This document shows, piece after piece, positions 1,000-35,580 of a stretch of 45,599 nucleotides of DNA (position 1 is the stretch's first letter; the number at the start of each line of letters is the position of its first letter). The DNA comes from Octopus sinensis (lineage: Eukaryota): positions 1 to 45,599 of the forward strand of contig NW_021834947.1 in NCBI RefSeq assembly GCF_006345805.1, read 5' to 3'. The notes under the pieces are model-generated. The model worked only from the letters and a program-made list of their open reading frames with translations, was not told the DNA's origin and made no database searches. The translations under genes were made by a program, and so were the position numbers.

Positions 1000-1430
1000 A
1001 GGCGTAGGAGTGGCTGTGTGGTAAGTAGCTTGCTTACCAGCCACATGGTTCCGGGTTCAGTCCAGCTGCGTGACACCTTGGGCAAGTGTCTTCTACTAGA
1101 GCCTCGGGCCGACCAAAGCCTTGTGAGTGGATTTGGTAGACGGAAACTGAAAGAAGCCCGTCGTATATATGTATGTATATATAAATATATATATATGTGT
1201 ATGTGTGTGTTTATGTGAGTGTGCGCGTGTGTGTTTGCGTGTCTGTGTTTGTCCTCCCAATATCGCCTGGCAAATGATGCTGGCGCGTTTACGTTCCCGT
1301 ACGTTAGCGGTTCGGCAAAAGAAACCGATAAGTAGTAGGCTTACAAAGAATAAGTCCCGAGGTAGATTTTTTCGACTAAAAAGGCGGTGCTCCAGCATGA
1401 CCGCAGTCAAATAACTGAAACAATAAAATG
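1000..1430 (+). mobile_element. SINE family A, full length (tRNA-like head, internal (TA)n(TG)n, LINE-like tail)
   Basis: A-box-like TGGCTGTGTGG, B-box-like GGTTCAGTCC, internal microsatellite, and tail ggcggtgctccagcatgaccgcagtcaaataactgaaac. Confidence 0.92.
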
Positions 1431-1764
1431 ATATATATATATATATATATATATATAATGTAGTAGCGTTCTTTACCTCTCTGGTCAATAAGAGTTCAGT
1501 ATCCACTAATTGAAGTTATCGATCTCATCATATTGATTGCATCGGTGATTATTTCACTTAGAGATATTAGAAATTTATATTGTTTATCGTTTGAAATGTT
1601 TCGTTGTAGGTCGAAGATGGAAATGTAAGATTCCAGTGACCAGGCATCGTAACCTGCTTTCGTTGTCAAGTGAATCTTAACCAACCCAGGTCGTTGACCT
1701 TTGTAATGCCGTTGGATTATTAGAAGTAAAACGATCGACAGAGGTTCATACATGCGCACACATA

Positions 1765-2059: not shown

Positions 2060-2578
2060 TAACAGCATTTTGCACTTCTTTATACGTTCTGAGTTCAAAA
2101 CCCACCGAGGTCGGTTCATCATTCCAGGGGTCAATGAATTAAATATCAGTCGAGCACTGGGGTCGATATAATCGTCGAATCCTTCCCCCACCAGAATTTC
2201 GGACTTTGTACCTTTAGCGGAAAAGATTATTATCATCACAATTATTATCATCAAAATCGTTAGATCATCAGACAAAATACTTTGCAGTATTTTTTTTTTT
2301 TGTGAATCATTACGTTCCGAATTCATATTTCACCAAGGTCTATCTTTGTCTTTCATCCTCCTCGTCGGGGTGGGGGTCATTAAAATAAAGTACCAGTCAT
2401 GTGAACTGGGGTCAGTGTAACAGACTTGCTCCGCGTCTTCGAAATTGTTAGCCTTGTACCAAAATTTGAAAGCAAAGATGGCTCGCTTAGTAGAATCGTT
2501 ACCGCGCCGAATAAAGTACTTAGCGTCATTTGTACCGGCTTTCAAATTCCGCTGAGGTCGACTTTGCCTGTCACCCTT
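2060..2578 (+). mobile_element. Three adjacent degenerate SINE family B copies (old tail type)
   Basis: Repeated gttctgagttcaaa..ccgaggtc..ttcatc..ggggtc..aagtaccag..ctggggtc motifs and gccttgtacc tails. Confidence 0.75.
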
Positions 2579-2992
2579 AAGCAAAATAAGCATGTGCTTT
2601 TAGGGCATCAAGGGAAGGAGGGGGAGGAGGCACCACAGAAATGGTAAGTGGTTTACGGCACAAATGAATTCACTTTAAACTTGCTAAAGTAACATTCGGG
2701 ATGCGTTTATCTCTACTAAGTATAGATGCAGATGTGTTACCTAAGATTAATTTTGAGGATTTGATCAAAGACTTTGCAATTCAAGAAAGTAGGAGGAAAC
2801 TTTTCAAATATGTAAAAAGTGGAAGTATGCAAAAATAAACATTATTTTCCCTCTTACTGTTTTGTTTCGTTTGAAAATAAAAATTTATTTTATGGTTTGT
2901 TATTGTTTATACTTTGAATTACATAATCTTTTATGGGGGTACCAAAATCTTTTTAAGTGCTTAGGGCCTCGATGGGTCTTAATCCAACCCTG
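2579..2992 (+). mobile_element. 3' fragment of a hAT DNA transposon with C-terminal transposase remnant, inside a SINE B copy
   Basis: About 2710-2805 translates to SLLSIDADVLPKINFEDLIKDFAIQESRRKLF, resembling the C-terminal dimerisation region of hAT/ZMYM1-like transposases. The fragment ends in tcttaatccaaccctg (CAGGG-type hAT terminus), and SINE B resumes at ccctttcgggg. Confidence 0.7.
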
Positions 2993-3310
2993 CCCTTTCG
3001 GGGTTGATATATTAGCGAAGTACTGGTGTCGATGTAGTGGCTTAAGGCCTCGATGGGTCTTAATCCAACCCTGCCCTTTCGGGGTTGATATACTAGAGTA
3101 TCAGCGAAGTACTGGTGTCGATGTAGTGGCTTAAGGCCTCGATGGGTCTTAATCCAACCCTGCCCTTTCGGGGTTGATATACTAGAGTATCAGCGAAGTA
3201 CTGGTGTCGATGTAGTGGATTAAGGTCGCGATGGGTCTTAATCCAACCCTGCCCTTTCGGGGTTGATATACTAGAGTACCAGCGAAGTACTGGTGTCGAT
3301 GTAGTGGACT
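2958..3310 (+). repeat. Tandem array of four units (81, 89, 89, ~80 bp) made of a hAT terminus plus a SINE B fragment
   Basis: gatgggtcttaatccaaccctgccctttcggggttgatat starts at 2971, 3052, 3141 and 3230. Confidence 0.95.
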
Positions 3311-7650: not shown

Positions 7651-8109
7651 ATGTATATGCACAATTATAACCCAACACCGGAAGCAGACACACACACACA
7701 CACATCGGGTGTACACGTAATGATTATTTTAATTCAGAATAACACACTTAAACCCGCACGAATTTCCGATTGTACAGATAATAAATGACCTTGTGTGTAA
7801 GATATTGAACTTACAATTGTTGAAATATACGGATATACAGAACAGATGTTGTTGTTTTTTCTGGTTTTTTTTTTTTTTAGCAGCGGAATTTTTAAACTCA
7901 GTTCACCCAATGCTGAAAAGTTGGCACCAATTTGTTTTGGAATGCTATCTGATAGACATCGCCATTCTGGAGTTATGTAGCCTCCCTGGCAACGTCTTTT
8001 GGCTTATTAGACTTCGCTGATATCGTCTGCATCAGTTTTGATTTGATCTGTTCGTTAACTTTCATCAAAATATATATAACTAAATCATTTAGATAGATAG
8101 ATAGATAAA

Positions 8110-8300
8110 AAAAAATACGAAGAGTAAACACTAAAAAAAACCACAACGTAAGGACGTGGTACGTGTAAAGTATTAGTAGACGCTCAGGGAAGGAAAGAAA
8201 GATGGTTTAACGTTTCGAGCAAAGCTCTTCTTCAGAAACAGAGGAAAGTCCAATAGAAACGGAAGGCGGAGGGGGAAAAATTGCCAACGATTCACAACGG
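8110..8300 (-). mobile_element. Penelope-like terminal-repeat remnant with minimal hammerhead motif (8205-8239)
   Basis: Minus strand reads GTTT-CTGAAGA-a-GAGC ttt GCTC-GAAACGT-T-AAAC. The flank tattagt..acgctc.gggaagg is shared with 32042-32162 and 40104-40230. Confidence 0.65.
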
Positions 8301-8346: not shown

Positions 8347-8449
8347 GCGCTGTTTCTCAACCATATATTGCTTGCCAACCCCTTTTTATACCTATTTTAA
8401 TCAGATGGACCCCTATAACCAATTGAAGTTTTAATAAAATCTCATTATA
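8347..8449 (+). mobile_element. hAT(Charlie)-like MITE fragment interrupted by the mariner element, continuing at ~9024-9120
   Basis: ctgtttctcaacc-type terminus and ggacccc motif; a related minus-strand sequence lies at ~35775-35912. Confidence 0.45.
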
Positions 8450-9023
8450 TTGGGTTGTCCGGAAAGTTCGTACCGATTTTTAAAGGAAAGAAAAAGGTTA
8501 ATAAGTACTTGCCATTACCCAAGCTTTACCAGGTGCTCATGAACGACGGATTTTGATAGGTGGAGGTTTTATGCCAATTCTCGGGTTGTGCAATGTGGGT
8601 TATTCTCAATTAATGACTTCATTTGGTCATCATCTGTAGTGGATGGTCTGCCTGATCACTCTTTATCAATAAGGCTACAATCTCCAGCTCAGAACCTTGC
8701 GATCAACTTCCGTACAGTTCTTTCGGATAAACAAACATCACCGTAAACTGCGCATATTTCTATGGTTGATTGTGAGGCATTTTTCCCTTTACGGAAAAAG
8801 AAAAGCATCAAGTGCCAAAAATGAACTTTCTTATCTTCCATTTTAAAGGGTTAGAGAATTAACACAGGTTATAGGAACACAAATCTTCTTTCACGAAAAG
8901 ATAGCTTAAACTGTGCTCTAAATCGAGGTGTAGTCAAATCCTATTTTATGGACTCAACCATGTTCTAAAATAAGTCGAAAGGTAAGCTACTATAAATCGG
9001 CACAAACTTTCCGGACAACCCAA
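8450..9023 (-). mobile_element. Internally deleted mariner transposon (574 bp) with TA TSD
   Basis: ~30-bp TIRs ttgggttgtccggaaagttcgtaccgattt / aaatcggcacaaactttccggacaacccaa, with TA on both sides and a transposase remnant inside. Confidence 0.93.
8565..8841 (-). pseudogene. Mariner transposase N-terminal HTH region, frameshifted and with stops
   Basis: MEDKKVHFWHLMLFFFRKGKNASQST / REICAVYGDVCLSERTVRKLIARF*AGDCSLIDKE*SGRPSTTDDDQMKSLIENNPHCTTRELA*. Matches the Hsmar1/Mos1-type N-terminus (SGRP, TTRE motifs). Confidence 0.88.
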
Positions 9024-9130
9024 TATTTTTACAGTTAAATATCATTAGGAATTGTATGAAAAAAATTAAATGAAGTGTAAGTTTATTGCAGAATGCATTT
9101 GAATAAAGTTGGTAACATGCAAAACCATAT

Positions 9131-15912: not shown

Positions 15913-16364
15913 CTTCTTCAGCAGTCGACCCCCGAAATGGATAGAATTTACAAACTTTTACATCAGATCGAATGTTTCGCATTTATTTGATTTGTAAAAA
16001 GGCCGTTTTTACTGTGGTTTGCCATGGAGAAAATTTCTCGCTTTAGACAAAAGGTGTAAAACGCGTAAGTTATTTCAGAGCACCCCCGTTCCCAGGGACT
16101 AATGCTTACATTTCGAGCTCTTTATACTCTCATCAGTATCAGATAACATGCGAGACAACTCTGATATCACTGGAGGTCTTGACTTCCTTTATAATGAAAA
16201 ATCTGTAGAAATTATAAAAGAGGAACTTCGTTGTTGCCGCCAGGCCGGAACAGAACAGCTGGTTTCTGCATTTAGTAACGACAGCAAAAGCAAATTTCAA
16301 TCTCCATCTTCTTTGTCCCTTCCCATCCTCATCGCTCCCCCTTTTTTTTTCTCCCTTTCCCTTC

Positions 16365-32237: not shown

Positions 32238-32747
32238 AGAGAGAGAGAGACAGACAGAGAGCACTTACATACAATACTCGGAGTTTCCAGGCAAGCTATG
32301 AGTATGGACTTATCTGATTTTCGTTCGGTAATCAATTCAGGAGATTCTGAGTGCCGTAGCGTTTCATGTTTGTATACTATATTTAATATACGTTCCTATT
32401 TTCCATTCTATATTCAGATCTACTTCTTTTCTTAGTACAAACGTAGATAATTGCTCTCTGTGCGTGTGTGGTTTTCTTTCCGTGTTGCTGTATCTTTCAT
32501 CTGGAGCTCACCATATTTGTCTTCAGCTAAAACCCGATGGAGTACTGAAATGCTATGCACGAAATTATTCCCAAATAATCGAAATTTCTCTCTTAGTTGG
32601 AGGATGCAAACTAAAAGACTACGGCATATGTTAATGTCTGCTAAAGACAAGAGGTGATAATTTCAAAAAAATTAATAATTAATCACTCAATGCACATTTA
32701 CATGCTTGGGAGAAGGAAAGCCTGGGATTTGCTATGCAGTAAGGGTT

Positions 32748-32791
32748 AACTATGGACATGTTTCGGTCTATTAGACCTCATTAGCATAGTT
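32748..32791 (-). ncRNA. Minimal type I hammerhead ribozyme with one core substitution (G5A)
   Basis: AACUAUG-CUAAUGA-GGUCU aau AGACC-GAAA-CAU-GUC-CAUAGUU: 7-bp stem I, 5-bp stem II, palindromic ACAUGU stem III and GUC triplet. Confidence 0.8.
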
Positions 32792-33199
32792 TAATCTTGC
32801 AAAACATCCCGATCACTTGAATAGAGAAAATGAGTTATGAATAATTTTTTGGCCAGTATAATTTGCATTCTGTATAATGCTTAATTAATTAATAACGTTG
32901 CCAACGATCGACACCATTATGGAAATTAAACTGTCCATTTTAGCTAAGTTTTGATTAGTTTATCATATAACGAGCTGTCAAATAACGCCATCTACGTGCG
33001 GTGAGTCTCCAAAGAGGAATGAAACTCGTCAAGACAATCCCCAAATTATTCTCCTTCAGAACAGGTAACAAAAAACAAAACAAACAGGTAATTCATTACA
33101 TTAGTTTGAAATATTTTTACATTTTAAACGTAGCGTGGCTAAAATTGTATAAAACTGCAATTCAATGAGAAATATTTATTTCTAAGTAACAATAACTGC

Positions 33200-35180: not shown

Positions 35181-35580
35181 TACTGAAATATATTATTATA
35201 AAGTCTGAATCAGCGAAAGCATTTTAGCTATAAGATTATAAAATATTTAGAAATCTTTATAAAACAGTTTAAAAGGTGGAACACGAAGCAGATAAACTTG
35301 TAAACCAGGGCTGTGGGAGTCGGAGTCGGGAATAGTTAAGGGGTAAGTGGAGTCGGAGTCTGAATAGTTTTTACCGACTCTACTGAAATATATTATTATA
35401 AAGTCCGAATCAGCGAAAGCATTTTAGCTATAAGATTATAAAAATATTTAGAAATCTTTATAAAACAGTTTAAAAGGTGGAACACGAAGTAGATAAACTT
35501 GTAAACCAGGGCTGTGGAGTCGGAATCGGGAATAGTTAAGGGGTAACTGGAGTCGGAGTCAGTAAAGTTTTTACCGACTC
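35181..35580. repeat. 200-bp tandem duplication spanning flank plus the left end of a hAT MITE
   Basis: Units 35181-35380 and 35381-35580, highly similar. Confidence 0.95.

Follow-up and report, generated by a model that had tools for sequence, protein, structure and literature searches.

Among described systems, the closest to the locus studied here are the metazoan non-LTR retrozymes, which, according to a published account (PMC7229834), are non-coding units of 150-450 bp with a GC content below 50%, occur as head-to-tail copies, and carry a type I hammerhead whose stem I is extended and bulged and whose stem II has 4 bp. In the axolotl hammerhead HHR_Amex1 of the same account, helix III consists of a single pair and a palindromic loop, and the monomer was 6% cleaved in an hour. 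The minimal hammerheads of Penelope-like pLTRs, as set out in PMC4209133, combine a type I topology with a palindromic helix III and many dispersed copies; their helix I is 4-5 bp, their helix II is often long and preceded by an extra unpaired base, and their unstable helix III impedes cleavage of the monomer, so that a second nearby hammerhead is required. Dispersed monomers of retrozyme families are also on record (bioRxiv 10.64898/2026.07.22.740005).

Here we describe a hammerhead motif on the minus strand of the window, by which we mean the whole 45,599-base contig that was analyzed, a stretch rich in microsatellites and short repeats. The motif belongs to a repeat family that resembles the non-LTR retrozymes in its unit size, base composition, head-to-tail junctions, and hammerhead layout, and HHR_Amex1 in its helix III, but that differs from them in consisting mostly of dispersed monomers at ~25% divergence and in having left no young, intact member in the assembly; in addition, the window copy carries a G5-to-A change (G5A), and the family is known here from DNA sequence. 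With the Penelope-like hammerheads, the motif shares topology, palindrome, and dispersal and, by analogy, probably a low activity that depends on dimers, whereas its helix I of 6-7 bp and the absence of the extra base set it apart from the minimal form. We conclude, with a probability of roughly 0.85, that the window element is a retrozyme monomer in neutral decay and that its only core lesion happens to have struck G5.

Anatomy and fold of the hammerhead motif

The motif comprises the following features:
32748..32791, minus strand: type I hammerhead motif, 44 nt (sequence, fold, and Rfam Hammerhead_HH9)
32785..32791, minus strand: 5' strand of stem I, paired with 32754-32748 (fold; the pair at 32791 reflects a change specific to this copy)
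32778..32784, minus strand: core C3-A9, reading CUAAUGA, with A in place of G5 at 32782 (sequence)
32765..32777, minus strand: stem-loop II, 4 bp with a UAAUA loop or 5 bp with an AAU loop (fold)
32755..32764, minus strand: G12-A14, the palindrome ACAUGU instead of a stable helix III, and C17 of the cleavage site at 32755 (sequence and ensemble probability)

Read on the minus strand from 32791 to 32748, the order is a 7-bp stem I, CUAAUGA, a 5-bp stem II, GAAA, CAUGU, C, and the return strand of stem I. The GAAA provides G12-A13-A14-A15.1, and GUC provides the NUH triplet; the GUC site and the palindromic ACAUGU named in the initial annotation are thus both present in the sequence. That annotation had further described all three helices as intact, which holds for stem I (7 bp) and stem II (5 bp) in the minimum-energy fold of the window copy but fails for stem III: In the window monomer this is a single A15.1-U16.1 pair with an ensemble probability of ~6e-6, and a 2-bp hairpin with a 2-nt loop cannot close. 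The stem III sequence is a palindrome that permits a dimer, and no second family copy lies within the window. Because such a stem III needs a second hammerhead, the solitary copy would probably have cut weakly even with G5 in place.

At the core, the window copy departs from C3-U4-G5-A6-N7-G8-A9 through A5, whereas the family consensus retains it. The description of 32782 as the single change therefore stands for the core, but not for the motif as a whole, since a second change relative to the family consensus lies at 32791 (consensus T in 58 of 84 copies), where it supplies the seventh stem I pair. In stem-loop II, the window copy has kept an ancestral CpG whose C was lost in 62/84 copies. 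G5 had been called essential, in agreement with the use of G5A as a standard inactive control for hammerheads (PMC4075628 and PMC4027429), and the window copy is accordingly predicted not to cleave.

Within 32650-32900, the best Rfam match was Hammerhead_HH9 (RF02275, clan CL00010; 22.3 bits, E 0.0021), in which the core layout and the stem I extension align; HH9, however, has a proper stem III, and the score lies below its gathering score of 52. A scan of the whole window at E<=1 listed microsatellite-driven miRNA noise only and no hammerhead, and five other loci bearing the family gave no hammerhead at E<=0.5. Since these five loci went unrecognized, Rfam is insensitive to this hammerhead family. 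The minus-strand type I hammerhead is nonetheless real as judged by sequence, fold, and recurrence: A family-type hammerhead is not a chance occurrence, with 85 pattern matches in the genome against 0 in the reversed control, and with G5 retained in 75/84 copies.

A dispersed repeat family of likely retrozyme origin

The hammerhead lies within a larger repeat:
32530..32882, minus strand: monomer of a dispersed AT-rich repeat family, likely a decayed non-LTR retrozyme (nhmmer with the family profile)

A DNA search of the 2.72-Gb animal genome to which the contig belongs (G000), probably that of an octopus, yielded 40 scored relatives. A family pattern built from the window copy, with its core positions left as N, matched 85 places in this genome; one exact duplicate was merged, leaving 84 distinct copies for analysis, while the non-hammerhead part alone returned at least 351 candidates. 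The search for paralogs that had been proposed at the outset thus revealed at least 85 copies of the family, and the label "solitary" is right only insofar as the window contains one family match, which is itself part of a ~350-bp repeat with at least 85 dispersed copies. Homology reaches ~100 bp beyond the motif on its 5' side and ~230 bp on its 3' side, and nhmmer aligned the window copy, the sole one in the window, to model positions 55-398 of 478 (E 3.7e-58). Outside the 44-mer, 235/305 aligned bases (~77%) are identical to the consensus.

Several properties match those of retrozymes. Of 114 loci that had a long match and were not duplicates, 11 showed a head-to-tail junction, the window copy itself being a monomer; the hammerhead-to-hammerhead period in two dimers was 403 and 345 bp, within the 150-450 bp of retrozyme units, and the consensus GC content is 27%. 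The consensus unit has a canonical type I hammerhead, with an intact core and a stem I that folds with an extension past a bulge, as had been suggested for the window copy. The unit contains no ORF of 90 amino acids, and ORFs overlapping it gave no Pfam match. For a target-site duplication, an optional feature of retrozymes, the two flanks of the window copy were compared; around this old copy they have no 7-mer or longer sequence in common. Near family copies (short flanks of ±1-1.5 kb, around old copies), a sense Penelope ORF with RT and GIY-YIG domains was not found among the 46 of 57 long ORFs scanned, the other 11 having been dropped as duplicates. These flanks held one RVT_1 match, antisense to the hammerhead, in an ORF that we take from its motif to be LINE-like. 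The family pattern had 0 matches in metagenome contigs.

The copies are old. Identity to the consensus outside the hammerhead has a median of 74% (range 60-83%), and the intact 35-nt consensus occurs 0 times exactly in the genome, 2 times at one mismatch, and 7 times at two. Given this median identity and the loss of every exact intact 35-mer, the retrozyme family is likely extinct, and the window copy, from its sequence, is likely a dead monomer of it, which supports the earlier proposal of an inactivated retrozyme-type hammerhead. In the literature covered on hammerheads and retrozymes in octopus, cephalopods, and molluscs, the family is undescribed; the species-listing supplement of PMC7229834 lies outside that coverage. 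Apart from placing on record a retrozyme-like family, now extinct, in this genome, the finding matters little.

The history that we propose is as follows. Tandem units of 345-403 bp would have been transcribed and the transcripts presumably cut into monomers by dimeric hammerheads via the palindromic stem III, after which reverse transcription in trans would have copied the monomers, probably through a Penelope-like element as the literature suggests. Monomers then spread across the genome, where about one base in four has since been lost. With no neighboring partner hammerhead, the window copy would have been a poor cutter even before the loss of G5, which it took as its sole core lesion before a split of ~6% (shown for one related organism, D, and deduced from counts for another, E).

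Loss of G5 against the background of family decay

Across the 84 copies, G5A occurs in 9, and G-to-A changes at the other eight G positions of the hammerhead occur in 6, 11, 11, 9, 8, 14, 9, and 12, respectively; six of these eight positions are constrained by the search pattern or lie outside it, whereas G8 and G12, free like G5, account for the counts of 11 and 14. As G5A is no commoner than other G-to-A changes, it likely reflects ordinary mutational decay and not a regulated switch. In the number of derived bases that they have in common, the nine G5A copies also do not exceed random sets of copies (273 of 300 random sets shared as many or more), so the change is recurrent. We accordingly rejected G5A as a subfamily trait; these copies form no clade. 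Core lesions were absent from 18 copies, numbered exactly one in 30, and numbered two or more in 36. In the dispersed monomers, about a quarter of the bases have been lost, with a G-to-A/C-to-T bias.

Copies chosen independently of the hammerhead gave the same picture. Among 29 loci found by the 3' part, 27 cover the motif, which is 76% identical to the consensus compared with 79% downstream and 70% upstream, and all 11 core positions are kept in 4/27. For a test of the core (three loci common to the first set dropped, 24 of 26 used, CpG positions left out), changed G/C positions amounted to 22/65 in the core versus 98/267 in the rest of the hammerhead (34% versus 37%, P 0.77), and changed A/T positions to 25/160 versus 85/451 (16% versus 19%, P 0.40). 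Core and non-core positions decay alike, which gives no hint that cleavage has been selected for or against, although a family-wide test of this kind cannot speak against selection at the window locus alone. The family thereby offers a neutral baseline for hammerhead decay, with core and non-core positions lost alike.

These data bear on the suggestion in the initial annotation that selection possibly fixed G5A to spare a host pre-mRNA, here one transcribed from the minus strand, the damage done by self-cleavage. The sole core lesion does strike an essential base and leaves the stems intact; single core mutants of this sort are what selection against an inserted hammerhead gives in phage MS2 (PMC4075628), and Xenopus introns are depleted of retrozymes (bioRxiv 10.64898/2026.07.22.740005). 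We nevertheless consider such selection very unlikely. G5A occurs at the background rate, core lesions are not in excess across the family, and 18/84 copies have kept an intact core. A monomer with such a stem III would, by analogy with the systems described in PMC7229834 and PMC4209133, cleave poorly without a dimer partner, and at 8239-8203 the same strand of the window still carries a minimal hammerhead whose core is intact. No host gene emerged either: Among 108 of 318 complex window ORFs of at least 45 amino acids, a scan that misses short exons, there were four weak Pfam matches and none at the curated cut-off. The window contains no tRNA genes. Neutral decay of a retrozyme monomer thus remains the preferred reading of the G5 loss.

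Related organisms and preservation of the window copy

Position 32782 could be followed in related organisms, a check that had been called for. Part of the stretch is contained in 20/24 listed runs, none recorded as RNA, and 7 runs were compared, all as contigs. Organism C carries A5 with 0 other letters, the contig ending 10 letters from the site; organism D carries A5 with 2 other letters, both elsewhere. In organism E, 39/673 bases differ; all five T>C places lie outside 32782, and E is therefore deduced from these counts to carry A5. Organism F (53/936 differing) is compatible with A5 among the differences listed. As A5 is common to related organisms, one of them ~6% divergent, these alignments place its origin before a split of ~6% pairwise divergence and indicate that it is old and fixed. 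The insertion of the window copy is several times older than that split.

At a lowered share threshold, three more differences (A>G, C>A, and C>G on the plus strand) were seen in organism E, and the counts point to the same kinds in both F runs. Deduced from the counts, they appear to fall in the paralogue-diluted interval 32740-32803, where the hammerhead's G bases make up eight of the ten C letters, and two more G bases in the motif or next to it seem, by the same deduction, to be gone from the E and F orthologues. The adjoining interval behaves differently:
32804..32928, no strand assigned: stretch over the element's 5' end and flank in which the orthologue of organism E has no substitution and a single 1-bp deletion (gap probability 0.01, calculated post hoc)

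Here E shows 0 substitutions compared with 39 in 673 bp overall, and F shows none among the differences listed (gap probability 0.02, not independent of E). Since most differences are common to both, E and F come close to one comparison. The interval contains ATGCAAAT and TAATTA motifs; ATGCAAAT is ancestral to the family. We regard 32804-32928 as a possible conserved non-coding element at the relic's 5' end.

The window copy is also well preserved within the motif. Its 44-mer differs from the consensus at 2 positions compared with 23% divergence elsewhere in the copy (binomial P ~0.001), and it is, jointly with one other copy, the closest match to the intact 35-mer. Two differences over 44 nt were found in 5/84 copies, where ~0.35 would be expected at a uniform rate from 351 candidates, an expectation for which 351 is a lower bound, the copies are of mixed age, and the pattern that selected the 84 was itself based on the window copy. 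The excess may reflect the true number of copies, their mixed ages, and ascertainment. Four of the five, the window copy, L003, L005, and L008, are near perfect with one core lesion, and the fifth, L023, is intact.

The preserved 44-mer and the substitution-free stretch leave room for constraint, more plausibly on the adjoining DNA than on catalysis. The locus could have been exapted as conserved non-coding DNA, for instance as an enhancer, over the relic's 5' end, with catalysis irrelevant and the hammerhead looking fresh because it lies in or beside constrained DNA; the gap in substitutions in E and F, the contrast of 2 differences with 23%, and the motifs in 32804-32928 all fit such a scenario. 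We consider it unlikely, as the gap test is post hoc on what is nearly one comparison, as the three E/F substitutions, by subtraction of counts, appear in 32740-32803 and would amount to a background rate inside the hammerhead, and as ATGCAAAT predates the copy. Window-specific complementarity of the outer stem I arms was also tried as a sign of constraint and rejected (z -1.5; orthologue changes at 32738 and 32726 are uncompensated).

Proposed editing of A5

The initial annotation had raised the speculative idea that A-to-I editing of A5 would restore a G-like base. Hammerhead catalysis needs the 2-amino group of G5. If A5 were edited to inosine in RNA and cleavage thereby turned on, the locus would be an editing-gated ribozyme and, to our knowledge, the first natural editing-gated self-cleaving RNA. 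Editing does yield a G-like base, A5 is common to several organisms, and the flanks can fold as a long imperfect hairpin, albeit not a significant one (z -1.5). Yet we hold the switch to be extremely improbable: A5 is predicted to be unpaired (pairing probability 0.014), the window monomer has no dimer partner, and the E and F orthologues, by deduction, appear to lack two further G bases of the motif, having apparently decayed further. Two contigs, X4 and X9, which are RNA only by guess, keep the genomic base at 32782 with 0 other letters across the site; as such contigs drop minority variants and carry no strand, they are weak evidence on editing. In a joint proposal, which we consider unlikely, the locus would be an exapted relic whose fold and 5' neighborhood are constrained, with catalysis switched off via A5; in its boldest and extremely improbable form, editing would re-arm cleavage in a host transcript. 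A neutrally decaying monomer accounts for A5 as one recurrent change among many.

Other hammerheads and repeats

Elsewhere in the window, a second hammerhead lies at 8203-8239 on the minus strand, within an element spanning ~8100-8296. It has an intact core and the Penelope-type minimal form, with a 4-bp helix I, CUGAAGA, an extra A, a 4-bp helix II, and the palindrome AACGUU. Its repeat of ~190 bp gave 4204 candidates and 180 exact 30-mers in the genome, with 0 in the control; a Penelope ORF was not identified among the 44 of 65 flanking ORFs scanned. A CUGAUGA...GAAA match at 16136 was dropped, as the stem I pairing is absent. Genome-wide, 56 intact-core type I hammerhead motifs from several further sequence families were found (control 0), one example being motifs whose stem III contains CUAG.

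Further repeats in the window include a stretch at 8448-9025 that by eye resembles a decayed mariner-type transposon with inverted ends, a candidate assignment, and tandem repeats at 3010-3307 (89 bp, 3.3 copies, 97% matches) and 35181-35580 (200 bp, 2 copies, 95%). Among the copies of the retrozyme-like family, those at L077 and L093 occur as inverted pairs; any transcript of such a pair could fold into long double-stranded RNA. At L013, a family copy at ~1250-1602 (minus strand) lies ~0.85 kb downstream of an ORF at 2437-3048 on the same strand with a Noggin domain (Pfam PF05806, E 2e-34); this copy, whose core is altered only at G16.2, is possibly located in the 3' UTR.
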